Virus record (IMG/VR): IMGVR_UViG_3300032116_000057
Span: 32,001 to 96,000 of that record
Strand: one strand, 5' to 3'
DNA: 64,000 nucleotides
Origin: a virus
Shown one piece after another: positions 1 through 63,550 of this stretch. A model generated the notes under the pieces. It was given only the letters and a program-made list of their open reading frames with translations, was not told the origin of the DNA and made no database searches. The stretch's first letter is position 1, and every line of letters begins with the position of its first letter. The translations under genes were made by a program, and so were the position numbers.

Positions 1-1263
1 GAAACTGAATACGACACACTCGTGGGACAGATCGGCACAGCCGAGCAACTTACACGAACTCCAGTCGGCGTATATGTTACGCCTGCTGATGAGCGTGCTA
101 TGACTGACAAGGGTTATTCCCCTGTCTTGGGCACTAAAGCGTGTCAGGCTCATACCAAAGCAACACTATCTACAGATACTTTGAGTAATATCCTTCCGGA
201 TATTTACTCACAAGTAAGCGAGCGCGATGATTCACTCGATGACTATGTTCTCGATAATCGTCGTCAAGCTGGCTCTGTAGTTCCGGTGGCAATGGGGGCT
301 GTGCCAACACAAACAATCGCCACGCCAATCGAATCAACACCTGTGGTAACACCGACACCAGCGTATGTTGCGCTAGCAGTCGTGCCACCAATGGAGTTGG
401 CTAAAAAGTATGTGCATAGGCAGGTATTTGGCAAAGAAGACTTTGCTATCTACGACTATGCCCGTTCTAACAACATCAACGTGCTTCTATACGGTCCAAC
501 AGGTCCCGGCAAGACAACATCTGTCGAAGCTTGGGCTGCTGAACGTATGCTCAGACTTGCGTTGGTATCTGGCAATGCATCATTGGAGCCAAGCCAAATG
601 TTTGGCAAAATGACTCAGATTGATGGCAAGTGGGTTTGGATTGATGGTCCAGTCACCGATGTTATTCGCAACGGTGGTGTGTTGCTCCTCGACGAGGTCA
701 ACTTCATCAACCCTAAAATCTACACAACTCTATACACATTGTTGGCAGGACAGCGTTCGATATCACTACTAGATCACATGGGTGAAGTAATCAAGGCTCA
801 TAAAGACTTGACTATCTTTGCAACAATGAATCCAGATTATATCGGCACTACACCGCTCAACTTCGCGTTTCGTAATCGCTTTGATATCCAAATTCCTTGG
901 GATTACGATGACAAGGTCGAGTCTAAATTGGTTAGTTCCAAGTCTCTGTTGAATCTTGCTAAGCAACTTCGCGTTGAAGCTGCTAAAGGTCAATACGAAA
1001 CCCCAATCTCAACCAATATGTTGATTGAGTTCGTTCAGTTCGTGGGTGACTTGAGTTATGAGTTTGCAGTTGAAAACTTCATCGCTCACTTTTCCCCAGA
1101 AGAAGCAGCGTCAGTTCGCCTTATCTTCCAAACTCACGAACACAACATTAAGACTGACTTCGGTATAGAAGTGCCTGTCACTGTTACACAGCCTGAAGAA
1201 TCGTTAACTCCTGAACAAGAACTTGAACAGTGGGTTAATGGTTTTGTCCCAACTTCTGTTTAG
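1..1263 (+). CDS. MoxR/CbbQ-family AAA+ ATPase (probably 5'-truncated by the window edge)
   Basis: Walker A GPTGPGKT, Walker B LLLDEVN, ATMNP and FRNRF motifs; frame is open back to position 1. Confidence 0.9.
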   Translation, partial: ETEYDTLVGQIGTAEQLTRTPVGVYVTPADERAMTDKGYSPVLGTKACQAHTKATLSTDTLSNILPDIYSQVSERDDSLDDYVLDNRRQAGSVVPVAMGAVPTQTIATPIESTPVVTPTPAYVALAVVPPMELAKKYVHRQVFGKEDFAIYDYARSNNINVLLYGPTGPGKTTSVEAWAAERMLRLALVSGNASLEPSQMFGKMTQIDGKWVWIDGPVTDVIRNGGVLLLDEVNFINPKIYTTLYTLLAGQRSISLLDHMGEVIKAHKDLTIFATMNPDYIGTTPLNFAFRNRFDIQIPWDYDDKVESKLVSSKSLLNLAKQLRVEAAKGQYETPISTNMLIEFVQFVGDLSYEFAVENFIAHFSPEEAASVRLIFQTHEHNIKTDFGIEVPVTVTQPEESLTPEQELEQWVNGFVPTSV

Positions 1264-1274
1264 AAAGGATAAAC

Positions 1275-3239
1275 ATGCCATTGATTGATGGACTGAGAGA
1301 TGAAGAAAACTCTTGGTATATCAAGGAGGCTAGGGATGAAGATTTGCAGGAACGTGCACTACAACTAGGAACTCTATGTCGTGTGTATGAACAAGCAGAT
1401 CGTGTTCTAACTGGCGATCCGATTGTTGTGAATGTTGTAAATCAAGGCCCGGCTCCAGCCTGGTCTGACGGTGCAACAATCACATTTAATGCTTCCGAGA
1501 TTCAAGACATGGACTTGGAAACATTGACACAAGTTACCGGCCTCAACTACCATGAGCTTTGTCATCAACTGTATACGCCTCGCAAAGGCACAGAAATGGT
1601 GAAATGGGTTATAGAAAATCAACTTATGGAGAGCATGAATATTCTCGAGGATCAACGAATCGAGACCCTATTTACTGCTCGCTACCCATCTGTTATTCCA
1701 TACCTATCATCTACCTGTGCTCGCTGGCTTTCAGAAGATGAATCAGATGTCTCTGGAACCTATTTGGCGATACGTGGTCGCAGATACTTGCCGGTAGAAG
1801 TTCGAGAAGCATATCGAGATGAGTTTGCTTTTCCAGAACTAATACCTACATTGGCTAGAATCATTGATGAGTATCGGCTGTTAGTATTTCCTCGAGATTA
1901 TGAACGAGCCAAAGAATTGATTCAACAATTCAATGACTATGTTCTACAACCAACAGGAATACTGGACCAAATTAGAGCACAAGTTAGTGCATACAACTAC
2001 AATCCAGAAGATGGTGGATGCACTCTCGGTGGTCCTACAGGCTGTGGGGGTCGTGCTCCCATGGCTAAAGGAAGACCAGAACCTGGCAAAGCACAGGAAC
2101 GTGATGCTGCTCGAGCTAAAGGTCAAGGCGTAGGAGAATCTCCTTACACCTACAAACCAAAAGTAAAAGGAGCCGGTAATCAAAAGCCTAGTGGTAAGCA
2201 AGATAAACCACAAGACGATGATGGAGGTAGTGGTGGTGGAAAAAACATTACAAACCACCGCACTCAAGATGAAGCACTAGATATACGCGAGAGTAATCTA
2301 GATACACCACCAGACATTGGTGTTGGTCATACTCCCAGCGTAGGTGGTGTTCCTAATCACATTGGAAACATGCTAGATGATATTGTCTTTGATACTTTGA
2401 ACAACAAAGATGTTATATCTGACATCAAAGCCAAACAAAAAGTAATTGTTGGTGGCGATGGTAGGTATGAAGATCAAAGTAAACGAGGCAAGTTTGATAG
2501 GACTCAGATTCCTGCAGAAGCAATAGTAAGTTATCGCAAGTTTGCGAAAGAACTACAACGCTTGCGTGATGAATCCGAACCATCATGGATTAGAGAAACT
2601 CCCTCTGGCAAATTAAACTTCAAACGAGTTATGGCTGGGTGTGAACCCGACGTAGCGTTTGATAGATGGGATGAAGGCGATGATGGATGTGACATCGAGG
2701 CTGTTATCTGTGTTGACAGGTCAGGCTCTATGTCATTCCAAAGCAATGATAGAAAGGCATCTATAGCGTGTTGGACTATTAAGCGAGCGTTAGAACACAT
2801 AGGCGCACCAGTTACTGTGTATGCCTTTGATGATCAAAACGAAGTTGCCTACAACAGAGCGGAGAAAGCCGATCGTCTCCAGTATAAGTTTATATACGGT
2901 GACGGCGGAACTAATCCCTATACCGCATTGCTTGAGGCAGAACAATTACTCATGTCCTCACGCAAGAAGAATAAGATGCTGTTCATAATTACTGACGGTG
3001 AGTTTAACCACGACCCTAATGATGATTTGATTGAACGCATCTCTAAGCGAGGTATTCTTACTTCGCTTGTCCTAATCATGGACGCTAAATCATTTGATAA
3101 TCACTACAGCAACAAGGATATGAAGAAGGTAGCCCACAGAACAGAAATCTTTGGTCGTATCTCTCATGCTGGCGAGTTACTATCGTTTGCCAAAGCGGTG
3201 GTAGTTGGTGCTATCAAAAAGCGTTCTCGTAGACGGTAG
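1275..3239 (+). CDS. VWA-domain protein with N-terminal HExxH region (CobT/VMAP-like partner of the AAA ATPase)
   Basis: MIDAS DRSGSM, GGTNP and ITDGE motifs; HELCH and NILEDQRIE motifs; directly follows the MoxR-type ATPase. Confidence 0.85.
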   Translation: MPLIDGLRDEENSWYIKEARDEDLQERALQLGTLCRVYEQADRVLTGDPIVVNVVNQGPAPAWSDGATITFNASEIQDMDLETLTQVTGLNYHELCHQLYTPRKGTEMVKWVIENQLMESMNILEDQRIETLFTARYPSVIPYLSSTCARWLSEDESDVSGTYLAIRGRRYLPVEVREAYRDEFAFPELIPTLARIIDEYRLLVFPRDYERAKELIQQFNDYVLQPTGILDQIRAQVSAYNYNPEDGGCTLGGPTGCGGRAPMAKGRPEPGKAQERDAARAKGQGVGESPYTYKPKVKGAGNQKPSGKQDKPQDDDGGSGGGKNITNHRTQDEALDIRESNLDTPPDIGVGHTPSVGGVPNHIGNMLDDIVFDTLNNKDVISDIKAKQKVIVGGDGRYEDQSKRGKFDRTQIPAEAIVSYRKFAKELQRLRDESEPSWIRETPSGKLNFKRVMAGCEPDVAFDRWDEGDDGCDIEAVICVDRSGSMSFQSNDRKASIACWTIKRALEHIGAPVTVYAFDDQNEVAYNRAEKADRLQYKFIYGDGGTNPYTALLEAEQLLMSSRKKNKMLFIITDGEFNHDPNDDLIERISKRGILTSLVLIMDAKSFDNHYSNKDMKKVAHRTEIFGRISHAGELLSFAKAVVVGAIKKRSRRR

Positions 3240-3251
3240 AAAGGAGTAACT

Positions 3252-3476
3252 ATGTGCGCAGAAACTATGTGCGTAGTTTGGGATGCTGTGACAGAGACCA
3301 TAATCGGTCCCTTCAATTCACACGATGATGCCCAAATGTTCGTGCTACATGCATCAGACATACTGATTGATGGCAATGTTTCCGAACTAACCATCGAACC
3401 TGTGTCAGACCCACAAGACTGGGCTCTTGACAACGCCTATGACGGTTCGCTATTTTCTACCCAGGAGGCTAACTAA
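3252..3476 (+). CDS. hypothetical protein
   Basis: ORF track; AAGGAG RBS. Confidence 0.7.
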   Translation: MCAETMCVVWDAVTETIIGPFNSHDDAQMFVLHASDILIDGNVSELTIEPVSDPQDWALDNAYDGSLFSTQEAN

Positions 3477-3637
3477 TGGCTATACCAAAGCAGGAACTAT
3501 ACATGACAGCATACCGGTTCAAAGAACAGGAGGATGCACGTTATGAAGAGGATAAAAAAACAGTTGTTAAACTCTTCATCAAACATAAACAAGAAGACCT
3601 ACTACCAATGTTAGGGTTGGAGGTGAATAATGATTAA
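3476..3637 (+). CDS. small hypothetical protein (MAIPKQELY..., ~53 aa)
   Basis: Translated by hand; TAATG overlap with upstream gene, GGAGG RBS. Confidence 0.6.
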   Translation: MAIPKQELYMTAYRFKEQEDARYEEDKKTVVKLFIKHKQEDLLPMLGLEVNND

Positions 3638-3800
3638 CCTTGCAAATATGGAAGAAGTCCAAGCTATTATTAATGATAAGAGTTTAGACTTCGTAGGTGT
3701 AAAGAAAAAGATTGAAACTTTACATCCTGATTACATTGTGTTTAGAACTCCAACAGGAGTATCTGTCCAGCATAAGGATGAGGTGAGTATCGATTGGTAA
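3630..3800 (+). CDS. small hypothetical protein (MINLANMEE..., 56 aa)
   Basis: Translated by hand; GGAGGT RBS; fills the gap between neighbours. Confidence 0.6.
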   Translation: MINLANMEEVQAIINDKSLDFVGVKKKIETLHPDYIVFRTPTGVSVQHKDEVSIDW

Positions 3801-4252
3801 ACACATTCTTACCTTGGCCTGACATGGAAAGATCAGCTAAGGCTCTAGACAACAAACGATTAGGTAAGCAACGAGTTGAAGCACTGCAGATACTCAGAGC
3901 AAACTTAGGACTAACTAAAGGCTGGAGAAATCATCCGGCTGCGGTTATGTGGCGAGGTCACGAAGGTTATCTATATCTATACACAAATGCTATGTGCATG
4001 GAATGGAGACAACGGGGCTTCGTCGATAATGTTCAAGGTCAGCTTCAAGATATATATGCAAAGTTTGACCTAGAAGGGTGGGAGCCACCGTGGTGGTGGA
4101 ACAACAATGAGTTCCATAAATCTCACCGATCTAATCTCAAACGTAAAGATCCGATTTGGTATCGGTTTCGAGTGCGAGATAACCTGCCGTATAAATGGCC
4201 CAAGCCAGATGGAACTCTGGCAATAACACAAAAGAAGGGAAAAGGTAAATGA
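3794..4252 (+). CDS. pyrimidine-dimer DNA glycosylase / endonuclease V-like (MSMEG_6728 family)
   Basis: TFLP...LDNKRLGKQRVEALQI, HPAAVMWRG and SHRSNL motifs. Confidence 0.85.
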   Translation: MVNTFLPWPDMERSAKALDNKRLGKQRVEALQILRANLGLTKGWRNHPAAVMWRGHEGYLYLYTNAMCMEWRQRGFVDNVQGQLQDIYAKFDLEGWEPPWWWNNNEFHKSHRSNLKRKDPIWYRFRVRDNLPYKWPKPDGTLAITQKKGKGK

Positions 4253-4283
4253 AACCAATATCAAGAAGAAAAGAAAGAGGAGA

Positions 4284-4937
4284 TTGATGCCTAATTGGTG
4301 CAGTAATACTGTCATCATTCAGGGCGAGCCTGGAGAGGTCCAACAACTTCTAGATTCAGTAGAGGATAGCGGGACCGCATTCAGTCTTGATAAGGTCATA
4401 GCAATGCCAAATGCATTGCGTGGTCAGTCAGCGCCTGAACGTGATGAAGATGCCGCATCTACTAACATGAAACTCTACGGAGCTAAAGACTGGTATGACT
4501 GGTCTAATCTCAATTGGGGGACTAAATGGAATGTAGATGCAAATATTGTCTACGATAACGGCAAGAACAATCCGTTATTAAATCAGAATAGAACTGTTCG
4601 TATTCAGTTTGAATCTGCGTGGGCTCCACCCTTGCCGGTGTATGAAGTGTTGGCTGCAAGGTGGCCCAACACAAACATTTACGTCGCCTATGATGAACCC
4701 GGTTCAGATTTTGCCGGATACGTCATGTATACCAAAGGGCGAGCAGTTAAGGAGGGAAACTTCTCATCTCCAAGTGGCCAAATGAACTATGTAGATCCTC
4801 CAAGTGAGGAGGACGTGTTCACGTGGTTTCCAGATGAAGAAAATTATGAGGAGGTGGGAAGTTATGTAGAAGCGGCCAAAATTCAACACCATGCTATGAA
4901 AGCAAGGCTAGAAGCAATGGCTAGTAAGTTAAGATAA
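4284..4937 (+). CDS. DUF1281/YubB-like ferredoxin-fold protein
   Basis: MPNWCSN start, WYDW...NWGTKW, FESAWAPP and YDEPG motifs. Confidence 0.75.
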   Translation: MMPNWCSNTVIIQGEPGEVQQLLDSVEDSGTAFSLDKVIAMPNALRGQSAPERDEDAASTNMKLYGAKDWYDWSNLNWGTKWNVDANIVYDNGKNNPLLNQNRTVRIQFESAWAPPLPVYEVLAARWPNTNIYVAYDEPGSDFAGYVMYTKGRAVKEGNFSSPSGQMNYVDPPSEEDVFTWFPDEENYEEVGSYVEAAKIQHHAMKARLEAMASKLR

Positions 4938-26029: not shown

Positions 26030-26330
26030 GCCACTGGTCTAAGCTTAAACCCTTGGCGGTATACCGACGCTTAGCTGCATTTCTTTCTCTATGAGACATG
26101 CCGCCAAAAATTCCATGTAGTTCATCATTAATGATAGCTTCCTTTAAACATTCTCTACGTACAGGGCACGGAGGTCTCCCATCTTTGCCCCAGCAAATAG
26201 CCTTAGCTTTGTCTGCTATCTCTTTATATAAAGTTTTGTCTCGTGGCGGAAAAAATATTTCCGTATCTTCTCCTCGGCACTTAGCCTCATATCTCCACGC
26301 CCAAGACACTCTGTCCTGGTATTCGTCCAT
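25965..26330 (-). CDS. whiB: WhiB-family transcription factor
   Basis: Four Cys (AKC, AIC, CPVRREC) and GIFGG turn. Confidence 0.9.
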   Translation of the reverse strand: MDEYQDRVSWAWRYEAKCRGEDTEIFFPPRDKTLYKEIADKAKAICWGKDGRPPCPVRRECLKEAIINDELHGIFGGMSHRERNAAKRRYTAKGLSLDQWLDSEDKRGKKGDTKQGAKKLP

Positions 26331-35728: not shown

Positions 35729-35951
35729 TTGGCGTAGGCGCTGTAGCTAATGCTCCGCACTCCGCACACTCCATTTCTAAGAAGTAGAACGATATCTCAT
35801 AGTCATCGAACATGACTTTTAGGTTCCATAAAGTTGATCCGCAAATACATACGTGTATAGGGTTGTCTTTATCTCTTAAATCAAGTGGTGACACGTACCC
35901 TCCTTCGACGTAGGTATTTGCGATCCTTAGATGTTGTGCCACCCCACACAC
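35709..35951 (-). CDS. small zinc-ribbon protein (true start probably ~35891)
   Basis: CICGS...CAECG. Confidence 0.6.
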   Translation of the reverse strand: MCGVAQHLRIANTYVEGGYVSPLDLRDKDNPIHVCICGSTLWNLKVMFDDYEISFYFLEMECAECGALATAPTPIDRVEI

Positions 35952-36138
35952 CTTCTAACTCTGGGTGGCGTACTGCGTATGCAAGGCAATCAAGGGTGAG
36001 CGGACAGTCTTTGCAGATGCTCTTAGCTTTATCTAAGTCTGCGTACATCCCCTCGTCATCTGGAAAAAATAGTTCAGGGTCTGCGTCTTTACAGCTTTGT
36101 TTGCCGTTAAATGGATGTGTTTCCAAATAGAGATCCAT
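35881..36138 (-). CDS. whiB: WhiB-family transcription factor (second copy)
   Basis: C...DPELFFP...AKSICKDCP...C...GVWGG; start moved to ATG at 36138. Confidence 0.9.
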   Translation of the reverse strand: MDLYLETHPFNGKQSCKDADPELFFPDDEGMYADLDKAKSICKDCPLTLDCLAYAVRHPELEGVWGGTTSKDRKYLRRRRVRVTT

Positions 36139-54198: not shown

Positions 54199-55731
54199 CT
54201 ATGCATTTCCGGTTAGTTGGCTTAGCTTAATAACGATAAACTCAGCTGGATATTGCAACGCAACTCCAATTTCGATATTAACTATTCCATTTTGGATATC
54301 AGTAAAGGAGGTTGTTGAAGAGTCTACACGCACAAAGAATGCCTGTGCCGCAGTAGCTCCTCGTAAACCACCTGATTGCCAGAAGTTAAGAAGGAAACCA
54401 CTCAGCGTAGTATTGAGACGTCTCCAAAGATTTGGATCGTTATTCTCAAACAAAGCAAACTGGCTTCTGTTCTCTAGTTCTTTCTTGATATAAATCAAAG
54501 AACGCTTTACGTTGATGTAGCGTTCATTTGAAGTATTGCGAAGTGTACGTCCACCCATTGACACAATTCCTGCACCAGGAACCTGGCGGATTGCGTTGAT
54601 AGGTTTAGTGCTATTGTTTAACGCATCGAGTTCTGCGTTAGTTAGCAAACGCTCTGTAGCAACTACGTTTGCTAAAGAATTGGTTAGGCCTGCTGGAGTC
54701 TTAAAGACACCACGAGAAGCATCAGTAGCAAGGTACTGACCAACCATAGCTGCACCAGGAGCCTGTAGGCGGGTTGCGCCACCAGCAGCACGGAGGCTAT
54801 CTGGAATTAAGGTCCATGGCCAGTAAGCGGCTGCAACTCCACCATCTGAATCTGGTGCTGCAGCAATTAGATCAGTCACATAAGTAGCGGCCTGTGCTCT
54901 TGTTTGAGCCTGTGGAATATCAACTACTGCAAAAGCGTCTCCGCGTAGTTCGCAGTAATTAACAAGATCTCCCTGTACGTTAAGGGAGAGGGTACGATCA
55001 TCGTTACTTCCTGTTGGCAAGTAAATGTACGCTGCGTTAGGAATGTTAAAGACGAGTGGGTTTTGAATGGCATCAAAAGTTGCCAATCCATCTGAGTAAT
55101 TAACTCTTGTTGGGGCAGATCCATTTGCACCTCCACTGAGGGCTTTTAAGCCATCAGCTTCTGGCATATTATCTGGAGCAACAGATGCTGAGTTTAGATC
55201 ATTAACCCGTACATATACAGAGCCAGAATTAACTACTGACTCTACAAATCTTGGATCATTATCTACCAAACTTAGATCGGTAAACTGTTCTACAACAACG
55301 CCGCTTACAGATACAACAAGATTAAATCTATCATCTACTCCTGCGTCTGTTACTTCAACGGCAATGTTATTACCCCATGCACCTGCGTTTTCAGCTTCTA
55401 CAGCGAGTGTGTTAAGACCCCCTGAAGCCCGGTCTGTTAAGATTACGCTAGCCTTTGCTGCACCGGTGCCAGTAATACGCTTTACGTAGAGCTGACGACC
55501 ACCATTAGCAAAGAAGTTATATGCTGCCCAAGTTACTGGGTAAGTGTCATTTAAAGCACCAAAAATTTTGGTGAATGATGTCCAGGAGTTAAGCAATACT
55601 GGAGCTGTTGCAGGTCCCTTTTCTAGGGGACCAACAAATGCACCAGCCGCTGTTCCTACATCTCCAAGAGCTACCGATTCTGGAAGCGGTACCTCGTTGA
55701 TAAAGACACCTGGTCTACTGTATGTAGCCAT
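54199..55731 (-). CDS. contractile tail sheath protein
   Basis: RPGVFINE, FFANGG, YWPW, GVFKTPAG, YINVKR, FENND and PAEFI motifs. Confidence 0.95.
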   Translation of the reverse strand: MATYSRPGVFINEVPLPESVALGDVGTAAGAFVGPLEKGPATAPVLLNSWTSFTKIFGALNDTYPVTWAAYNFFANGGRQLYVKRITGTGAAKASVILTDRASGGLNTLAVEAENAGAWGNNIAVEVTDAGVDDRFNLVVSVSGVVVEQFTDLSLVDNDPRFVESVVNSGSVYVRVNDLNSASVAPDNMPEADGLKALSGGANGSAPTRVNYSDGLATFDAIQNPLVFNIPNAAYIYLPTGSNDDRTLSLNVQGDLVNYCELRGDAFAVVDIPQAQTRAQAATYVTDLIAAAPDSDGGVAAAYWPWTLIPDSLRAAGGATRLQAPGAAMVGQYLATDASRGVFKTPAGLTNSLANVVATERLLTNAELDALNNSTKPINAIRQVPGAGIVSMGGRTLRNTSNERYINVKRSLIYIKKELENRSQFALFENNDPNLWRRLNTTLSGFLLNFWQSGGLRGATAAQAFFVRVDSSTTSFTDIQNGIVNIEIGVALQYPAEFIVIKLSQLTGNA

Positions 55732-57788: not shown

Positions 57789-57909
57789 TTTTTTTCTTCA
57801 CTTTCTTAGGGAGCTTCTTACCCTTAGGGGTTTCACCCCCCCACTTTTCAGCCATTTTAGGGTCATTAGCATACATCCATTTACGCTGAGCTTCGGATTT
57901 AAAGGGCAT
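57772..57909 (-). CDS. 45-aa basic peptide
   Basis: Translated by hand: MPFKSEAQRKWMYANDPKMAEKW...KKR; TAATG coupling. Confidence 0.65.
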   Translation of the reverse strand: MPFKSEAQRKWMYANDPKMAEKWGGETPKGKKLPKKVKKKSGKKR

Positions 57910-58526
57910 TAAATACCTGGCACAGTTCCTTCAGGATCCTCATAGAATGAGTATCTATCTCTAGGACCAAATGGAGTGTAGGTCGCGTACTCTGCAAACT
58001 GTGGGTCATTAATAAGCTCTTCAGCGTTTACCTGGTAGCAGACTACAGAAAATAAGGTGTAGTCATTAGTAATAATCCCCTTAGGTAGTACCTGTCTAGG
58101 GCTAAATACCTGGTTCTTAAATACAACGCGATCTCTTAAAAAAGCATCTGGGTTTGTAGGTAGGGCTCTTAATTCTGGGATAAGCAACGTCTCACTAGTT
58201 GATAGCGAGCTGCCTTCTGCTATATCCATATTTATTGTTATATTTAAAACGTCGGTGTTGTAGAAACCACGGTCACTAGGCACCGTACTGCCTTGTGTCA
58301 AGGTAGCGTTAATAACGGGAATGTGGTATGGGCCAACCCAACGACGTCCCCCAGTATTAGCTCCAACGTCGTATATGGGGTCAACAACAGTAGCAACAGG
58401 GTCATAAAGCCACCACTCTAAGTCATAGCCTACGGTACGTACTATTTCTTTTGTGGTGCCCTTAATAATCGATCCACGCTCATGATTGATCGTAAATCTG
58501 GAACCTTCGACTCGTTCTCCACGCAT
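57909..58526 (-). CDS. putative head-closure/neck protein
   Basis: DPIYD...DRVVF...F pattern; position before tail completion genes. Confidence 0.5.
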   Translation of the reverse strand: MRGERVEGSRFTINHERGSIIKGTTKEIVRTVGYDLEWWLYDPVATVVDPIYDVGANTGGRRWVGPYHIPVINATLTQGSTVPSDRGFYNTDVLNITINMDIAEGSSLSTSETLLIPELRALPTNPDAFLRDRVVFKNQVFSPRQVLPKGIITNDYTLFSVVCYQVNAEELINDPQFAEYATYTPFGPRDRYSFYEDPEGTVPGI

Positions 58527-58573: not shown

Positions 58574-59308
58574 CTACTTCTTTTGATGATCAATAAAAGG
58601 GTTATCCCAGGCATCCCTACCCCTAAAATATTTTCTTCCGGCTGAGTGGGGCTTTAGCATGTCCTCTTGTTGCCGTTGCCTAGCTAATTCGGTCCCGGCT
58701 TTGTACTCTAACTCAATCTCTTCAGGGGTAAACAGTTCGTCTGCATATTTGATGGTAAAACGATCTGCAAAATATCTAGGTATTGGTATAAAAGCTCCAA
58801 TAGGATCTCCTGCCTTTATAGTCACATAGATATTAGGTTTGGTGACTTTTAAATTAAAGGTAAAATCACGACTAAGATTATCAGTCTCTATTACCCCAGT
58901 CATATGCATAAGCCCGTGTTGAGGAAAATTAGGTGGGGTTATAGTCATTAAATTTATTCCTGGCGGAGTTCGATAATGCCATAAGTTTTGAATTGTTAAT
59001 ATTCCAGAACCAAAATGACCATCAAATCGTTGACATCTAGCGTCTTCATGTTTTTGATTTATTATAAGGCCATGTATAGAGTCGTCCCCATTCCAATGAA
59101 CAGTTACGTCTCGTTCAGCTCTTACTATAAACCCATAAACATTTCCTATAGACAGCGGAAGGCAATAGTAAAAGTGAGAAGTAAACCAATCTCTTTTTTT
59201 AATTTCTGTCAGAGGTATTAAAAGCTTATCAATATCCTTTTTGTCTATCCCTGGTTGTGGTACGACAACTAACGTTTGTTTTGGAACAAAAGTGTCTTTA
59301 TTAATCAT
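58574..59308 (-). CDS. DUF6065-like protein
   Basis: RDW...YYCLPLSIGN.YG, TPPG.NL, GVIETD, FTFN and GDPI..FIP motifs. Confidence 0.65.
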   Translation of the reverse strand: MINKDTFVPKQTLVVVPQPGIDKKDIDKLLIPLTEIKKRDWFTSHFYYCLPLSIGNVYGFIVRAERDVTVHWNGDDSIHGLIINQKHEDARCQRFDGHFGSGILTIQNLWHYRTPPGINLMTITPPNFPQHGLMHMTGVIETDNLSRDFTFNLKVTKPNIYVTIKAGDPIGAFIPIPRYFADRFTIKYADELFTPEEIELEYKAGTELARQRQQEDMLKPHSAGRKYFRGRDAWDNPFIDHQKK

Positions 59309-60194
59309 GAGTTGGCACCCCTATTTTGCTTATGTTTAAAGGAACTATATACCCGGTTAATTTACAAAACTCATCTATAGTTTTTTTAGGGACACCATAA
59401 AAACCTTCAAGCTCTCCGCGTATAAATTTGTTTCCCCTAGAGGTATCATTTAACATGTCTAATTTGGGGTGGCCATCATTCCACGGCTTTACGTTACTTT
59501 GTATAGCTATTCTATCTTGCGAGTAAAAATGAAAAAATACCGGGTTATTAAAAAAAACTATTGGGTAGCCGTGATAAAAAGCCCTAATACTTAAACACAT
59601 CTCATCACAAAAAAAATCTAATTCTGGGTCTTGAGGCACTTTTAACAAAAACTCTTTTTCAGAAAAAACGCAAGCTCCATGTATATAGTGGTGTTCTGTT
59701 AAGTCTTCGGCTTCTTTATGACTAGGCCAATTTCTAAACTGGGCACCTTCTAATACGGCGTGGGACATACGTAAAACCGGTCCTGTTTCTCTGTTTCCAT
59801 TGGAATATAGTCTATACATCGCGGGGTATGCGCTCAAAACTACTGGGGAATTGAATTTTTCTTTTGCTTTTTTATATACATTTATTATGTCGACATCCCA
59901 ATTTTTTACAGAAAACATGTGTGCGTCTATCTGAAGAACATAATCGTAATCGCTAAACATGGCGGTTGATAAAGATCGCGCCCAAGTTACGCCGTAAGTT
60001 TCTTTTGGATTTACTTTTAGATATCTTAAATTTAAAGTAGGTATAAATGAAAGATCTGGATGCTCGTAGTCTTGAGATACTACAGAGAATAAGATACGAT
60101 CTTTATACTTAGCGTCTTCATAAAAAGAACGAACAGTGTGTTCTAATTCTATTTCTCTATATGAAGGGACAGAAATAAGTATTTTTTCATGCAT
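59301..60194 (-). CDS. GT-A glycosyltransferase, Gnt1/GT60 ([Skp1]-hydroxyproline GlcNAc-transferase)-like
   Basis: ISVPSYRE, GVTWARS, YVLQIDAHM..VKNWD, LSAYP and DPEL.F..DE motifs match the Gnt1 pattern. Confidence 0.8.
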   Translation of the reverse strand: MHEKILISVPSYREIELEHTVRSFYEDAKYKDRILFSVVSQDYEHPDLSFIPTLNLRYLKVNPKETYGVTWARSLSTAMFSDYDYVLQIDAHMFSVKNWDVDIINVYKKAKEKFNSPVVLSAYPAMYRLYSNGNRETGPVLRMSHAVLEGAQFRNWPSHKEAEDLTEHHYIHGACVFSEKEFLLKVPQDPELDFFCDEMCLSIRAFYHGYPIVFFNNPVFFHFYSQDRIAIQSNVKPWNDGHPKLDMLNDTSRGNKFIRGELEGFYGVPKKTIDEFCKLTGYIVPLNISKIGVPTHD

Positions 60195-60754
60195 TAGTAC
60201 AACGCATACTCTTTAGATTTATCAAAAGTCCAAAAAGAAGCAATCGTGTACCTAGTGCTATCTTCTATTTTAGTTACGCCATGAAGATGTTCAGGATCAC
60301 CAGGATGTATAGCTAAGTTTCCAGCTTTTGGTATAACCTCAAAATTATGCTCCGGGTAGTACGTATGACCCCCAGAATAGTTATCGTTTAAATAAATTAT
60401 CGCTCCAAATACCCTATGCTCAAAACCTCTATGTTCTGTATTAGTCATGTCGTCTGCGTGAGGGGGTTGCTCCATTCCGGGAAACCAACGAATAATTTGA
60501 GTAAGATCTGCGTAAACTTCTTTGTCTAGGCCGTACTCAAACATAATAGCGTTTTTAACTTTTATGGTGGCTTCGGCAACAATATCTGCAACTTTAGGGT
60601 CTATGTTTTTTCTAAGGTTGGGAAGTCCTAAAGCCCTATTAGACCAAAAATCATTGCCCGCACCCTCCCAAGTATCTACTTTAGATACGGTGGTTACTAC
60701 GTATTCGCAATCTTCTTTAGATAAAAAATTTGATACTACTTTTGGATTAAACAT
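60194..60754 (-). CDS. 2OG-Fe(II) oxygenase, prolyl-4-hydroxylase-like
   Basis: NFLS.EDC, HAD, IIYLND.Y.GG, HGV and RYT (HxD...H...R). Confidence 0.9.
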   Translation of the reverse strand: MFNPKVVSNFLSKEDCEYVVTTVSKVDTWEGAGNDFWSNRALGLPNLRKNIDPKVADIVAEATIKVKNAIMFEYGLDKEVYADLTQIIRWFPGMEQPPHADDMTNTEHRGFEHRVFGAIIYLNDNYSGGHTYYPEHNFEVIPKAGNLAIHPGDPEHLHGVTKIEDSTRYTIASFWTFDKSKEYALY

Positions 60755-60764
60755 TTTAGCCCTC

Positions 60765-61025
60765 TTAATCTTCCGTTTTAGACCATTTTCCTACGGGACA
60801 TTCCGCAAGTTTTAATTTAGTTTTTAGGTGCATTAAACAACCGCATTTTTTACACTGGTTTGTAGATTTTGTAAGAAATTCGCAGCCCCTACAAATGTTA
60901 AACCTAAGCTCAGCTATAGCGTCGGTAGTGTAATTATCCTTATTTAAAAGTTGCCAAGGTCTAGTTTCTCCTTGAGCTTCTTTCATATCTTGGAGTTTTT
61001 GCTTATATTCTTTCCATGCAGACAT
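60765..61025 (-). CDS. small Cys-rich protein (DUF6171-like)
   Basis: R..ICRGC...QCKKCGC.M..K.....ECPVGKW. Confidence 0.7.
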   Translation of the reverse strand: MSAWKEYKQKLQDMKEAQGETRPWQLLNKDNYTTDAIAELRFNICRGCEFLTKSTNQCKKCGCLMHLKTKLKLAECPVGKWSKTED

Positions 61026-61043
61026 GCGTATAGTGTACCCTAC

Positions 61044-61490
61044 TTAATTGGTGTGGGGTAAAAAGGCGGTTCCGTCATGCACCCAACCAATAGAAACTTC
61101 TTGGGAGCAGGGAAATACATGGGCATCAGAGGATAAACCAGCCTGAATCCTATAAAAATCTTCTGGATCCATATCCTCTTTAACATAGGTAATTGTTCCT
61201 ACTACATCCTCATCAACAACCACAGCTACCCTACAGATACCTTCTGAAACGCTCTCAACTTCTGTAGCCGGATATAGCATTTCAGAGTCAGAATAAAAAA
61301 TTCCATCCTTATATGTGTACGTTTTGTCCACGTTAGGGTAACGGTCGATATTTATGACTGATGGATCAGAGCTAAATGCCGCAATCCATCTGTCCCAACT
61401 TCTTGTACTAATATCGCTGGGTTGATCAGGTAGGTCCATAGTTAAGAACACATCGCCTTCAACAACAAATGCAAATCGTTTTGTTAGCAA
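61044..61490 (-). CDS. fibre-associated protein with internal duplication (possible chaperone)
   Basis: Two repeats of FAFVVEGDV...A.SSD...; directly follows the fibre gene. Confidence 0.55.
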   Translation of the reverse strand: MLTKRFAFVVEGDVFLTMDLPDQPSDISTRSWDRWIAAFSSDPSVINIDRYPNVDKTYTYKDGIFYSDSEMLYPATEVESVSEGICRVAVVVDEDVVGTITYVKEDMDPEDFYRIQAGLSSDAHVFPCSQEVSIGWVHDGTAFLPHTN

Positions 61491-63550
61491 ACGATGCCTC
61501 CCAAGTTAGTACAGTTACCTGCACAGCTTACGGTACCCAGTCTAGCGCACTCTCCGCCAGGGCCATAACCGTAGACTTCACAGATATCTCCTTGGTTAGG
61601 TACACAACCTGGAGGTGGAGGTGGTGGTGGAGGCGGAGGCGGAGGTGGTGGAGGCGGAGGTGTTGACGGACAGCCAACAAACTCACAAAATCCTAAGAAA
61701 CACTCATAGCAAGTCGGACAGCTCACATTACTACATGGATCCGCTGGTGGAGGTGGTGGAGGTGGAGGTGGTGGAGGTGGAGGTGGCGGTGGCGGTGGAG
61801 GCGGTGGTGGAGGTGGCGTACAACTATCCTGACATACGTAAGAGTATCCAGATATGCTTCCACAACAATTATAGTTTGCTATACGCAAGGCATTACCGCA
61901 ACACTCAGCTCGGTATACAGTTCCTGAAGGTATTTCATCACACAAACCGCAGCAACCGCAATCGTTACACCCACAGGGAGCAGGTGGAGGGGGTGGTGGT
62001 GGCGGAGGTGGTGGCGGTGGAGTGCTACAACCAAGACCAACATAGTATGGGCTACCATAGTTTGTAGTTCCATCCGAACACTTAGGCCAATAAGTTTGAT
62101 AGTTAGTGCATCCCGGGCAAGATCCATCAGGGCAGCTTCCGCTACCTACAGGTCCTTGAGTACTTCCATATTGAGTGCCACAAGTTAATGTAGGGCAGCT
62201 GCTTCCAGAGCCGCCACTACCCCCGCAACCAGAAACGTTTACAGCAATACAATTACCATAGCTCGTAAGGGTAGCTGCAGGACAACCATCAGTAGTATAG
62301 ACCCCATCACAGAGTCTTCTATAACCGGTGTAGTTTCCTACGTAGGAATCTTCCCCGTTACATGTAGGTTGTGTAAACGTATAGGTTTCACAAGATCCAC
62401 ATTGAACAGTACAAGTACGAGCAGTAGCAAAACTACCAGTTTCAGTATAACTATTGTTACAGTTATCAGTTCTAGTCCTAGTAGTAGCTGTACCGGATTC
62501 AGTGTTGTTAACGCAGTTACCGCTCCAAGTAATACCGCTGTATGACCATGCTGAGTACGAAGTGATAGTACATCCTCCTGGCCCTGGTGGCGGAGGAGGA
62601 GGTGGCGGTGGAGGTGGAGGCGGTGGTGGCGGAGGTGGTGGTGGAGCTACATATCCGCATACCACCGAGTTAGATTCTACTAATTTGTCTAATATAAATT
62701 CATTATTAGTAACTCCTGCAGAACTATATCGAAGGTACCCAAGACGTTGACGTCTATTTACTCCGCTGCAATACAACTCATTGAGAAATGTACCGACTTG
62801 ATAAAAAGATGAAGTCGCTTCGGTAGTTGCGGGAGACGTTATGTAAATATTGTCTGCAGTGCTACCCTGTTGATCAGAACTTAAAGTTTTAATTAACCCA
62901 ATATAAGTACCTTGAACAGGAGATGGGGGAGTGACTATTAGCGGCACTGATAATTGAGTAGTTGCTAAAAGATCAGAATAAGCGATTATCCTTAACGTTC
63001 CGTCTAAAGATTTTACAGAAATGCTATTTATAGACGTGTAGGCAGAACTACTATAATTTATTACCGCGGTATATACCGTTGATCTTGTTCCCGACACATT
63101 TCTAATAACATCAATAGATGATAGGTATACGCCATCAGACAACGAGTATCTAGGTACTGCTGCCCACCAATTATTAGAGTCTGTTACCCAAAAAGCTAAC
63201 CCGACACCGCCGCTAGTACTTACCCTAGCGTCAAAACTAGAGCTATATAAATCTGCTACGGTTAATGCATTGCTGCTGGGGCTTTCATCACATGATGCTT
63301 GTTGAGACCCATTTACTTTCCAAACACCACCACCAAAAGACAACCATGTTTGTCCACTTTCAGCCGTTCCCAAAGATGATACGGAAGACGCTCTGCTAAA
63401 GGTGTCCTCTATTCTAGAAGCAAACCATTGACGCCATTGACCATTAACTTTAACGTAGGCAGCAGTAACGGTTTTCCATTGACCGCTTATTTTAACTGAA
63501 AGACGAGACGCCGTCCTCCAAGTACCGCCAACCTTCGCTTGACCTGGCAT
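61484..63550 (-). CDS. putative tail fibre/appendage protein with Cys-rich modules and four polyproline runs
   Basis: N-terminal KVGGTWR/KISGQWK/KVNGQWR repeats, beta-sandwich domain, then Cys-rich blocks separated by P20, P13, P24 and P17. Confidence 0.75.
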   Translation of the reverse strand: MPGQAKVGGTWRTASRLSVKISGQWKTVTAAYVKVNGQWRQWFASRIEDTFSRASSVSSLGTAESGQTWLSFGGGVWKVNGSQQASCDESPSSNALTVADLYSSSFDARVSTSGGVGLAFWVTDSNNWWAAVPRYSLSDGVYLSSIDVIRNVSGTRSTVYTAVINYSSSAYTSINSISVKSLDGTLRIIAYSDLLATTQLSVPLIVTPPSPVQGTYIGLIKTLSSDQQGSTADNIYITSPATTEATSSFYQVGTFLNELYCSGVNRRQRLGYLRYSSAGVTNNEFILDKLVESNSVVCGYVAPPPPPPPPPPPPPPPPPPPPGPGGCTITSYSAWSYSGITWSGNCVNNTESGTATTRTRTDNCNNSYTETGSFATARTCTVQCGSCETYTFTQPTCNGEDSYVGNYTGYRRLCDGVYTTDGCPAATLTSYGNCIAVNVSGCGGSGGSGSSCPTLTCGTQYGSTQGPVGSGSCPDGSCPGCTNYQTYWPKCSDGTTNYGSPYYVGLGCSTPPPPPPPPPPPPPAPCGCNDCGCCGLCDEIPSGTVYRAECCGNALRIANYNCCGSISGYSYVCQDSCTPPPPPPPPPPPPPPPPPPPPPPPPADPCSNVSCPTCYECFLGFCEFVGCPSTPPPPPPPPPPPPPPPPPGCVPNQGDICEVYGYGPGGECARLGTVSCAGNCTNLGGIVC

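Follow-up and report, generated by a model that had tools for sequence, protein, structure and literature searches.

Glycosylation of hydroxyproline (Hyp) is known in plants, algae and protists and, to our knowledge, in no phage. In Dictyostelium and Toxoplasma, the Skp1 pathway begins with PhyA, a 2OG prolyl hydroxylase of the cytoplasm that acts on one proline of a regulator; a soluble GT60/PF11397 transferase, Gnt1, then adds GlcNAc to the new Hyp. Chlorovirus PBCV-1, a eukaryotic algal virus, has a collagen-type prolyl hydroxylase (P4H), vCPH (PDB 5c5t), with no known GT60 partner, and also encodes Pro-rich repeat proteins, the reported substrates. The virion proteins of mycobacteriophages are decorated by phage-encoded glycosyltransferases, in what is reported as Ser/Thr O-glycosylation with no hydroxylase step, and we know of no GT60 enzyme or poly-Pro acceptor described in these systems. 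In the extensins and pherophorins of plants and green algae, poly-Pro rods of polyproline II (PPII) type are hydroxylated and their Hyp is then glycosylated (PMC8724618). A tandem dioxygenase array with a dUTPase-fold protein bearing a conserved cysteine was described in Synechococcus phage Syn9 (Iyer et al. 2010, PMC2938197), where secondary-metabolite synthesis was proposed and no link to a Pro-rich substrate, GT60 or DUF6171 was described.

The window analysed here, a stretch of 64,000 nucleotides, comes from an uncultured lake phage, lytic and freshwater, whose host is probably an actinobacterium, since the genome has two WhiB genes. ORF calling revealed a six-gene cluster on one strand (-) at positions 58574-63550, located within the fibre/neck structural block, among tail-fibre genes, and outside any early or metabolic region. 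The original prediction of a Cys-rich fibre with four pure polyproline runs, followed on the same strand by two small proteins, an oxygenase, a glycosyltransferase and a DUF6065-like gene, corresponds exactly to the ORFs found:

61484..63550, minus strand: fibre-like protein, 688 aa (ORF; proposed substrate)
62585..62644, minus strand: poly-Pro run 1 of the fibre, 20 Pro, aa 303-322
61982..62020, minus strand: poly-Pro run 2, 13 Pro, aa 511-523
61745..61816, minus strand: poly-Pro run 3, 24 Pro, aa 579-602
61610..61660, minus strand: poly-Pro run 4, 17 Pro, aa 631-647, then a 6-Cys terminal knob
61044..61490, minus strand: 148-aa protein (ORF; no Pfam match)
60765..61025, minus strand: DUF6171 protein, 86 aa (PF19668, E 1.2e-7)
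60194..60754, minus strand: 2OG/Fe(II) oxygenase, prolyl-hydroxylase type, 186 aa (PF13640)
59301..60194, minus strand: GT60 glycosyltransferase, 297 aa (PF11397)
58574..59308, minus strand: DUF6065 protein, 244 aa (PF19541)
57909..58526, minus strand: 205-aa protein, last in the cluster, perhaps part of the module (no family match)

The oxygenase stop and the transferase start overlap (TAATG), in agreement with the translational coupling claimed before; the transferase and DUF6065 ORFs share 8 nt, and no minus-strand terminator-like site was found inside the cluster. The gene order is unchanged in relatives with fibre identities of 94% and 67% (Pro runs excluded), in which 45/45 and 42/45 of the fibre cysteines are kept while the run lengths vary; the cluster is thus not a product of chance.

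The fibre contains 45 Cys, and its pure Pro runs, coded by a mixture of CCA, CCT and CCG, separate modules with 18, 12, 6 and 6 Cys. Only residues 3-46 match known phage families (phrog_36019 and phrog_25859, both of unknown function). The protein is Ser/Thr-rich (76 of the first 302 residues) and the Pro runs, of 13-24 residues, are devoid of Ser. We propose that the protein, presumably a virion component, attaches by its N-terminal part and continues in rigid poly-Pro (PPII) rods that alternate with Cys-rich knots. Rods likewise alternate with Cys-containing or globular modules in extensins and pherophorins, although the plant motif is Ser-Pro(3-5) and not a pure Pro run of 13-24 residues. 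The 148-aa protein gave no family in the Pfam search; an ORF of ~150 aa holds its slot in most related loci, with recognisable homology in 13/80, and a sub-threshold Atlas match to tail-fibre assembly proteins (0.77) weakly suggests a possible helper role in the assembly of the fibre.

A closer inspection of the oxygenase supported its predicted P4H-like 2OG-Fe(II) character. It matches PF13640 (E 2.2e-8, 35.4 bits, above the cut-off of 27), and its triad H99-x-D101 ... H158, together with R168, is invariant among homologues. A profile search against 177,635 PDB sequences returned prolyl hydroxylases only, the best match being the B. anthracis P4H (9.3e-8), with P3H1, the Chlamydomonas P4H and the chlorovirus vCPH also found. 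The top folds for the predicted model (pLDDT 89.5) were P3H1, PBCV-1 vCPH, B. anthracis P4H, Chlamydomonas P4H, PHD2 and LH3; for the algal enzyme among these there is a structure in complex with (Ser-Pro)5 (3gze). By profile and predicted fold, the oxygenase is grouped with peptidyl prolyl or lysyl hydroxylases only. The parallel drawn with PhyA and Skp1 is not supported: its nearest relatives in sequence are P4Hs of collagen, algal and chlorovirus type, PHD2-type enzymes were matched by fold but not by sequence, and the phage genome encodes no Skp1. No copy of the family was seen in 185,579 species genomes, which makes a host-derived housekeeping role unlikely.

Two partner proteins accompany the oxygenase. 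DUF6171 has six invariant cysteines (C-x2-C ... C-x2-C-x-C ... C-P-x-G-K-W), suggestive of a zinc-ribbon-like adaptor, and lies upstream of the oxygenase in 72/80 loci; similar ORFs directly precede 2OG oxygenases in T4-like cyanophages (cyanomyophages) too. It forms fusions with GT60 (P0328) and with a domain of borderline similarity to sulfotransferases (P0323). The assignment of the last gene as DUF6065-like was confirmed (PF19541, E 6.1e-37); it is present downstream of the oxygenase in 70/80 loci, and W41, C49, P51, D143 and R178 are invariant. Its predicted model (pLDDT 84.5) gives VIA Z values of 8-10 to dUTPases, against ~3 for unrelated rows. A dUTPase-like fold with an invariant Cys, as the model indicates, fits the dUTPase-fold protein of the Syn9 array.

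The linkage to Pro-rich proteins was surveyed in 80 viral contigs with oxygenase orthologues (51-63% identity). A Pro-rich ORF (threshold, 16 of 40 residues) could be seen just upstream on the same strand in 44 of 55 judgeable loci and in 25 of 30 oxygenase clusters (~25 lineages), against a background of 4/881 other genes and 2/1204 genes in GT-only phages. Wherever DUF6171 lies upstream on the same strand and enough upstream DNA is available, the adjacent ORF is Pro-rich or near the threshold, three loci reaching 15 residues. The stalks are built of (PPVT)n, (PPPIIAT)n, (PPIIAVT)n or (PPPPT)n repeats or of uninterrupted Pro, up to 49 residues at a stretch, and usually end in a C-terminal knob with 4-12 Cys. 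The pairing holds across lineages whose repeat units are entirely different, which points to selection on the pairing. The conserved unit is thus a Pro-rich stalk and Cys knob protein, an ORF of ~150 aa, DUF6171, the oxygenase and DUF6065, with the transferase optional.

The transferase shows the SYRE, WARS, QIDAH and NWD motifs noted before and matches PF11397 'GlcNAc' with E 7.1e-28 (98.5 bits, cut-off 21), so that both of the profile checks proposed for the enzyme pair gave scores above the cut-off. Residues Y12, A72-R73-S74, Q88, D90, H92, W99 and D100 are invariant among 10 homologues, and by these sequence criteria it is a true PF11397/GT60 member. The expected co-occurrence of both enzymes with polyproline fibres is seen for the oxygenase, with Pro-rich stalks of several kinds; GT60, in contrast, is found in 20/80 oxygenase loci and is absent from 60/80, which places glycosylation outside the conserved core. 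Within the cassette it occupies three positions (before the oxygenase, after DUF6065 or ~3 kb downstream), and the copies, every one PF11397, are split by long branches in the tree. Judged from these sequences, GT60 entered the cassette repeatedly, at different positions, and the sources were divergent lineages. Pure Pro runs of at least 11 residues were found in 6/7 GT lineages and in 1/10 GT-less lineages (Fisher p = 0.004), an association drawn from roughly four independent recruitments, at a threshold picked after the data were seen. In bacteria, PF13640/PF13661 oxygenase domains are present, in either order, on 47 of 120 long GT60 proteins listed, and one such domain aligns with the phage oxygenase family at an hhalign probability of 97% (E 3e-11); JmjC, radical SAM/SPASM and PqqD modules, which are peptide-modifying, are also fused to GT60. 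Another 76 phage loci have their GT60 within a glycan island, surrounded by GT1, GT2, FkbM, methyltransferase and epimerase genes, with no PF13640 protein among the 20 largest neighbour families. These loci carry WhiB, so their hosts are probably Actinobacteria, and they resemble the virion glycosylation systems of mycobacteriophages.

The reading that we favour, with about even confidence, is that the cluster is a protein-tailoring module for the adjacent fibre, whose prolines would be hydroxylated and would then receive a sugar from GT60, likely on Hyp. All steps would occur in the host cytoplasm, as in the Skp1 pathway and not in the ER/Golgi, where the plant pathways rely on arabinosyl- and galactosyltransferases from different GT families. 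The P4H-like oxygenase would hydroxylate the rod prolines, with the Cys6 protein DUF6171, which may bind substrate or metal, and the dUTPase-fold DUF6065 as its partners. In this phage lineage the coupled GT60 would then move a sugar from a UDP-sugar to the fibre; the precedent of Gnt1, whose Pfam model the phage enzyme passes, suggests GlcNAc, and the new Hyp hydroxyl would be the most likely acceptor. The product would be extensin-like rods, stiffened and protease-resistant, holding the Cys knots at the distal end for binding. In this scenario the target is a many-site poly-Pro rod and not a single proline, the transferase is, unlike Gnt1, an optional addition to a DUF6171-oxygenase-DUF6065 core, and the hydroxylase, unlike vCPH, is co-encoded with DUF6171 and DUF6065 in an operon of fibre genes. 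The claim that the phage encodes the substrate and both enzymes is partly supported by the type of oxygenase, the Pro-rich linkage, the GT60 recruitment, the fusions and the operon layout, and is weakened by the optional nature of the transferase.

The two enzymes could instead carry out separate modifications, the oxygenase on the Pro rods and GT60 on Ser/Thr residues, either in the fibre or in a different virion protein, with no Hyp-sugar bond. The family includes protist polypeptide alpha-GlcNAc transferases that act on Ser/Thr and start mucin-type O-glycans (PMC8724618), Ser and Thr are abundant in the fibre, Thr lies within the repeats of several GT-bearing relatives (such as (TPPPA/TPPPV)n in L117 and (PPPAT/PPPTT)n in L095), and the 76 island loci have no conserved hydroxylase neighbour; to this extent the role of GT60 as a Hyp-directed partner has lost ground. 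We nevertheless regard separate modifications as unlikely, because the fusions of GT60 to PF13640 are hard to explain if the steps are unrelated, the oxygenase and GT genes are joined by the TAATG overlap, and the cassette GT60 lineages accompany long pure Pro runs without Ser/Thr. The enzymes might also act on collagen-like fibres nearby, on another virion protein or on a host protein; most of the oxygenase loci are related by synteny, and the linkage could therefore reflect an inherited order of the tail module and not an enzyme-substrate relation. About 4 kb upstream, the same genome encodes two collagen-like proteins, one of them a fibre with Mtd_N and collagen repeats, and in L163, L164 and L105, which have neither a Pro-rich ORF nor a same-strand DUF6171 upstream, the oxygenase and DUF6065 adjoin Mtd_N-type, Gly-rich or collagen-like fibre genes. 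Moreover, DUF6171-oxygenase pairs of cyanophages, that of S-RIM2 included, are flanked by fibre genes without Pro repeats, and solved bacterial P4Hs act on collagen-like peptides or EF-Tu (PDB entry titles). Such targets seem equally doubtful, given that the adjacent ORF is Pro-rich or nearly so in every judgeable locus with same-strand DUF6171 upstream and that the oxygenase family was not found in the species genomes searched. Collagen P4Hs use Pro in an X-Pro-Gly context, and the Gly-Pro-Thr/Gln repeats of this genome place Pro outside it.

For cyanophage 2OG oxygenases, roles in 2OG modulation or DNA repair (PMC3037559) and in the synthesis of secondary metabolites (PMC2938197) were proposed earlier. 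An auxiliary metabolic role of this kind, in 2OG turnover or small-molecule and nucleotide chemistry with DUF6065 as a divergent dUTPase, would suit the fold of DUF6065 and a genome in which no canonical dUTPase was found. It is nevertheless highly improbable in view of the position of the genes in the structural block, the restriction of the oxygenase matches to protein hydroxylases, the peptide-modifying modules fused to GT60 and DUF6171, and the tight linkage to Pro-rich proteins. At the downstream edge of the cluster, the 205-aa protein, for which profile searches (Pfam and phage families) gave no family, is counted in 4/80 GT loci and 5/80 oxygenase loci, and it also ends the cluster in a few relatives.

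The phage record is 104,454 bp long and is rated complete by CheckV, the window corresponding to its bases 32001-96000. The genes of the cluster and the other loci relevant to its interpretation are as follows.

Features of the cluster, the window and the flanking genome
63550..61484, minus strand: fibre-like protein, 688 aa (ORF call)
61490..61044, minus strand: protein of 148 aa (ORF call)
61025..60765, minus strand: DUF6171 protein, 86 aa (ORF call and Pfam)
60754..60194, minus strand: PF13640 oxygenase, 186 aa (ORF call and Pfam)
60194..59301, minus strand: PF11397 GT60 transferase, 297 aa (ORF call and Pfam)
59308..58574, minus strand: DUF6065 protein, 244 aa (ORF call and Pfam)
58526..57909, minus strand: protein of 205 aa (ORF call)
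Window 35914-36102 and 26076-26297, minus strand: two WhiB-family genes (E 4e-20 and 3e-19)
Whole phage genome (G000) 97887-100145 (L167:3888-6146), outside the window: Mtd_N and collagen-repeat fibre (630 aa, Gly-Pro-Thr/Gln triplets) and a 121-aa collagen-like protein

The seven minus-strand genes from 63550 to 57909 form an unbroken row. Beyond the 205-aa gene come neck-region ORFs, the tail sheath (54199-55731, 36-37% identical to Streptomyces phage sheaths) and then an ORF that probably encodes the tail tube, while upstream of the cluster lie further fibre genes, including the Mtd_N and collagen-repeat fibre, the second collagen-like protein and a TPR protein. The phage probably infects Actinobacteria, because its genome has two WhiB genes, and a low-GC freshwater actinobacterium is a plausible host (genome GC 43%). 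A scan of the window for tRNAs found none, and the whole locus, used as a DNA query against cultured phages, gave no match.

The 688-aa protein contains 45 Cys and four pure Pro runs (20, 13, 24 and 17 residues) encoded by a mixture of Pro codons, with 18, 12, 6 and 6 Cys in the Cys-rich modules between the runs. The starting observation, a Cys-rich fibre with four pure polyproline runs followed by the genes listed and a coupled transferase, is fully borne out by the ORFs, the Pfam assignments and the gene junction. Outside the Pro runs, the fibres of two related contigs are 94% and 67% identical to this one and keep 45/45 and 42/45 of the Cys positions, and the run lengths vary (14/7/13/24/11 and 6/11/9/25/14). 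From these alignments the fibre appears to be under selection, the Pro rods behaving as variable-length spacers between conserved knots. Pro runs of 20-49 residues need host EF-P for translation, and genes with such long runs are an extreme case for translation studies. In locus L008 (L008:3-635, IMGVR_UViG_3300043395_000387), whose GT is 51% identical, the fibre ends in a 20-Pro run followed by a Hint/intein-like domain, which starts with Cys-Leu-Val-Gly-Ser-Thr, ends with Ser-His-Asn and replaces the terminal Cys knob; this domain suggests that the rod end may be self-cleaved or ligated in some lineages. For the 148-aa protein, an Atlas search returned only sub-threshold leads, to tail-fibre assembly proteins.

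The oxygenase passes PF13640 (35.4 bits, cut-off 27) and is the sole copy of this family in the genome. Residues H99, D101, H158 and R168 are invariant in 24 oxygenase sequences and, judging by their position, would provide the H-x-D...H iron triad and the basic residue for the 2OG carboxylate. A profile search of the PDB matched eight distinct sequences, all of them prolyl hydroxylases, among them B. anthracis P4H, human P3H1, Chlamydomonas P4H and chlorovirus vCPH, with PHD absent. The AlphaFold model (pLDDT 89.5) has P3H1 (4e-11), vCPH, BaP4H, CrP4H, PHD2 and LH3 as top Foldseek matches, PHD2 at slightly weaker E-values. The Pfam, PDB profile and fold matches all confirm the P4H-like oxygenase of the original prediction, which appears to be a peptidyl prolyl/lysyl-hydroxylase-type enzyme nearest in sequence to the collagen/algal/viral type. 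Its homologues make up more than 396 database clusters, many of them 55-62% identical and several on contigs of ~100-110 kb. The family looks phage-borne, because a scan of 185,579 species-representative genomes revealed no member; the scan also gave no prophage or host clue.

The surroundings of the oxygenase were compared, by profile searches, in the best 80 of ~141 viral contigs (orthologues 51-63% identical, plus three near-identical). In these loci, with mechanically called ORFs, many short contigs and a kinship that inflates the counts, DUF6171 occurs in 72, DUF6065 in 70 and GT60 in only 20, and additional PF13640 paralogues are common. The ORF directly upstream on the same strand encodes a Pro-rich stalk that usually ends in a small knob with 4-12 Cys. 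Its repeat unit is lineage-specific, namely (PPVT)n, (PPPIIAT)n, (PPIIAVT)n, (PPPPT)n or (TPPPA)n, and in other lineages the stalk has pure Pro runs, the longest reaching 34 and 49 residues. Some stalk proteins begin with an FN3-like part, and the shortest consists of a 20-residue N-terminal peptide, the rod and the knob. By a fixed criterion (at least 16 Pro in 40 residues, in an ORF within 2.5 kb, at loci with enough upstream DNA), a Pro-rich upstream ORF is present in 44 of the 55 judgeable loci, with three more reaching 15 Pro in 40, and in 25 of 30 oxygenase clusters at 85% identity. The background is 4/881 for the other genes of these loci, where each of the four is a frame on the opposite strand and perhaps not a gene, and 2/1204 for the genes of phages carrying only the GT. 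Loci without the Pro-rich ORF are also without a same-strand DUF6171 directly upstream. Among them, L088 and L118 are truncated copies of arrangements that have the Pro-rich gene, and in L163, L164 and L105 the oxygenase and DUF6065 stand beside Mtd_N-type, Gly-rich or collagen-like fibre genes. This gene order argues strongly for a conserved module; the evidence for an enzyme-substrate relation between the oxygenase and the Pro-rich protein is weaker, because the loci are related by descent and the order of structural genes tends to be conserved. At another locus, a (PPVV)n ORF is separated from the oxygenase pair by a gene (L106:875-1873) whose product has a radical-SAM-like Cys motif (C-x3-C-x2-C).

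The transferase passes PF11397 ('GlcNAc') with 98.5 bits (cut-off 21), its residues 55-251 aligning to positions 98-294 of the model. D90-A-H92, within Q-I-D-A-H, is invariant in 10 homologues and presumably corresponds to the catalytic D-x-D-like motif of Gnt1. The oxygenase stop and the GT start overlap in the sequence TAATG. Both the GT60-family membership and the coupled start noted for this gene hold. Neither the single GT sequence nor its profile had a match in the PDB, and a protein search of cultured phages turned up just four jumbo phages, 23-26% identical. Sequences similar to the window GT make up only nine database clusters, and the profile search gave 145 viral stretches. Among the best 80 of these, 4 loci (including L008) are close kin of the window with the whole cassette and a poly-Pro protein, and the remaining 76 come from another group of phages with WhiB, in which GT60 is found among GT1-like, GT2-like, FkbM methyltransferase and NDP-sugar epimerase genes. 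PF13640 is absent from the 20 largest neighbour families of these 76 loci, and GT60 is therefore not tied to the hydroxylase in phages generally. Of the expected co-occurrence of P4H and GT60 with polyproline fibres, the part concerning the oxygenase stood, and GT60 proved an occasional member. Within the oxygenase cassette it occupies three positions (before the oxygenase, after DUF6065 (window) and ~3 kb downstream), and these copies, all passing PF11397, lie on long separate branches of a quick tree, a pattern that fits repeated recruitment into the cassette. A pure Pro run of at least 11 residues occurs in 6/7 GT-bearing lineages versus 1/10 GT-less ones (Fisher p = 0.004), with GT-less lineages counted only where at least 5 kb of downstream DNA was available, the threshold of 11 set post hoc and about four independent events represented; the association of GT60 with long pure Pro runs is suggestive only.

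DUF6171 passes PF19668 (32.4 bits, cut-off 27), with C45, C48, C58, C61, C63 and C76 invariant in 24 sequences, and belongs to a family of 9,360 representatives at E <= 0.001. A complex prediction for the oxygenase and DUF6171 scored 0.00, which counts neither for nor against binding. T4-like cyanophages have a DUF6171-like ORF directly before a 2OG oxygenase, in S-RIM2 inside the fibre gene cluster. In this cultured Synechococcus phage, an unannotated DUF6171-like ORF of 66 aa with 6 Cys (L169:2986-3183, KX349258.1 27874-28071) directly precedes the annotated 2OG-Fe(II) oxygenase among tail-fibre-like genes; no Pro-rich tract was found beside the pair, which could be a tractable DUF6171-oxygenase model.

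DUF6065 passes PF19541 (127.8 bits, cut-off 26.6), and C49 and D143 are invariant. Its model (pLDDT 84.5) aligned in VIA-align to eleven dUTPase or dUTPase-like chains with Z 8.2-9.9 (~103-129 aligned residues, rmsd 2.4-3.2), compared with Z of ~3.5 or less for unrelated rows, and gave Foldseek E-values of ~1e-3. The predicted structure has a dUTPase-like fold, and a 'GVIETD' stretch may resemble dUTPase motif 3. Iyer et al. (PMC2938197) described, within the dioxygenase array of Synechococcus phage Syn9, a protein of dUTPase fold that has a conserved cysteine, and DUF6065 agrees with this description. Canonical dUTPase (PF00692) has no match in the whole genome at E <= 0.1, DUF6065 being the only dUTPase-fold member detected there. 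A PDB sequence search with DUF6065 gave nothing useful, the fold search alone being informative, and a protein search of cultured phages gave nothing. At one locus (L135:7721-10200), four DUF6065 paralogues and a second DUF6171 copy lie within ~8 kb, and the family therefore expands locally.

Domain fusions in bacteria bring these enzymes together in single proteins. Among 120 listed long GT60 proteins, 47 carry PF13640 and/or PF13661 oxygenase domains (hand count from the table); three such fusions were confirmed by hmmscan, with the oxygenase at either end, and two more are open frames in bacterial MAGs, one of 654 aa in Cyanobium and one of 1,938 aa in Rickettsiales (L180:4099-9912), the latter with eight GT60 and two oxygenase stretches. 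In one of these fusions the oxygenase domain can be aligned to the phage family (hhalign probability 97%, E 3e-11). DUF6171 is itself fused to GT60 in the database protein P0328 and to a borderline sulfotransferase in P0323 (21.9 bits, cut-off 22), and this Cys6 module seems to accompany enzymes acting on hydroxyl groups. The best argument that oxygenase, DUF6171 and GT60 may act on one protein substrate, with the GT using the hydroxyl made by the oxygenase, comes from these fusions taken as a whole. Stand-alone GT60 loci of bacteria, mostly Acidobacteriaceae, have no adjoining oxygenase of the family and no convincing Pro-rich ORF; only the fused forms are informative. In other GT60 fusions (P0187, P0203 and P0213) the partners are radical SAM/SPASM, PqqD and JmjC/cupin-8 oxygenase domains, that is, peptide-modifying modules, PqqD being a recognition element for ribosomally made peptides; they suggest an unexplored bacterial class of peptide-glycosylating enzymes. 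Giant proteins of 1,300-2,000 aa (L180 and P0130-P0163) combine multiple GT60 and PF13640/PF13661 domains with GT2 and peroxiredoxin (AhpC/TSA) domains, an architecture expected of uncharacterised multi-enzyme protein-glycosylation machines.

The reading that we favour, at about even chances, is a fibre-tailoring module in which the oxygenase would hydroxylate prolines of the rod and, in this lineage, the coupled GT60 would then glycosylate the same protein, with Hyp as the most likely acceptor and GlcNAc as the sugar suggested by family precedent. Evidence for this donor and acceptor is indirect and consists of the oxygenase fusions, the TAATG coupling and the association with pure Pro runs. 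The 2OG, Fe(II), O2 and UDP-GlcNAc would be supplied by the bacterial cytoplasm. The cytoplasmic Skp1 pathway shows that hydroxylation followed by GlcNAc addition works without the secretory pathway. The transferase could instead carry out a Ser/Thr glycosylation unrelated to the hydroxylation of the rod, since GT60 also includes Ser/Thr-directed members (PMC8724618); with the oxygenase and GT60 joined in the same bacterial polypeptides, we regard this as improbable. A similarly low probability is given to a different substrate, the Pro-rich linkage being mere synteny. The collagen-like pair ~4 kb upstream of the poly-Pro gene offers alternative candidate substrates for the hydroxylase, and the three loci with Mtd_N-type, Gly-rich or collagen-like neighbours bear on the same point; on the other side stands the persistence of a Pro-rich upstream ORF whose repeat unit differs between lineages. 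A metabolic or small-molecule role of the enzymes is very improbable, the PDB relatives of the oxygenase all being prolyl hydroxylases.

The tailoring of the rod by hydroxylation and glycosylation, as proposed, works like the PhyA/Gnt1 pair of Skp1 and resembles in its working the Hyp-rich glycoproteins of plants and algae. These parallels, drawn in the original prediction, are likenesses of the proposed mechanism. The module does not belong to the Skp1 pathway, Skp1 (PF01466) having no match in the genome at E <= 0.1 and the oxygenase being nearest in sequence to the collagen type. Nor is the fibre an extensin, whose Ser-Pro(3-5) motif it does not contain: its Pro runs (13-24) are flanked by Ala, Thr or Gly, and repeated Ser-Pro(n) units are absent. 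Chlorovirus vCPH is the nearest viral precedent. Searches of the literature on phage prolyl hydroxylases with Hyp glycosylation, on DUF6065 and on bacterial GT60 turned up no such phage system. Specific to this locus are a GT60 step, rods of pure poly-Pro with Cys knots, and fusions tying together GT60, PF13640 and DUF6171.

The role of the many 2OG/Fe(II) oxygenases of aquatic phages has been debated since about 2007-2010. They have been proposed to balance 2OG or repair DNA (PMC3037559) and to make secondary metabolites (PMC2938197). The present locus and its ~80 relatives offer an alternative, namely that these oxygenases tailor the phage's own Pro-rich fibre proteins, to which the GT60 gene adds Hyp glycosylation as a possible second step. 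[quoted passage not shown] More tentatively, and with chances somewhat below even, the phage may build extensin-like Hyp-O-GlcNAc poly-Pro rods in the bacterial cytoplasm; Hyp-linked glycosylation of proteins would then have its first example outside eukaryotes. The responsible system would be a widespread one for fibre tailoring, seen to date in phages alone, and made up of a stalk of Pro repeats ending in a Cys knob, DUF6171 as substrate or metal adaptor, the P4H, a dUTPase-fold partner and an optional GT60 or sulfotransferase; it would account for the orphan 2OG oxygenases that aquatic phages carry and have the bacterial GT60-oxygenase fusions as its cellular counterparts. If true, this would be a new virion decoration bearing on host recognition, particle stability and protease resistance, and a compact toolkit for producing hydroxylated, glycosylated poly-Pro rods in the bacterial cytoplasm, and the abundant bacterial fusions of GT60 with oxygenase, radical SAM and PqqD would represent an unexplored class of peptide glycosylation.

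Two further observations concern regions outside the window. A 367-aa protein of the fibre block, encoded on the minus strand at G000 96656-97759 (L167:2657-3760), contains TPR repeats and has a weak, sub-threshold GT2-like match at its N-terminus. One of its TPR matches, weak and below the cut-off (E 1e-4), is to the TPR domain with which collagen prolyl 4-hydroxylase binds its peptide substrate. A second enzyme that modifies the fibre is a possible identity for this protein. At both ends of the linear record (G000 198-4879 and 100185-104152) lie seemingly paralogous four-gene sets, encoding proteins of 807 or 948, 94 or 89, 223 or 233 and 177 or 192 aa. The N-termini of corresponding proteins are very similar, and those of the proteins that were searched against Pfam matched no family; the arrangement looks like a duplicated fibre cassette, or the record may be circularly permuted.
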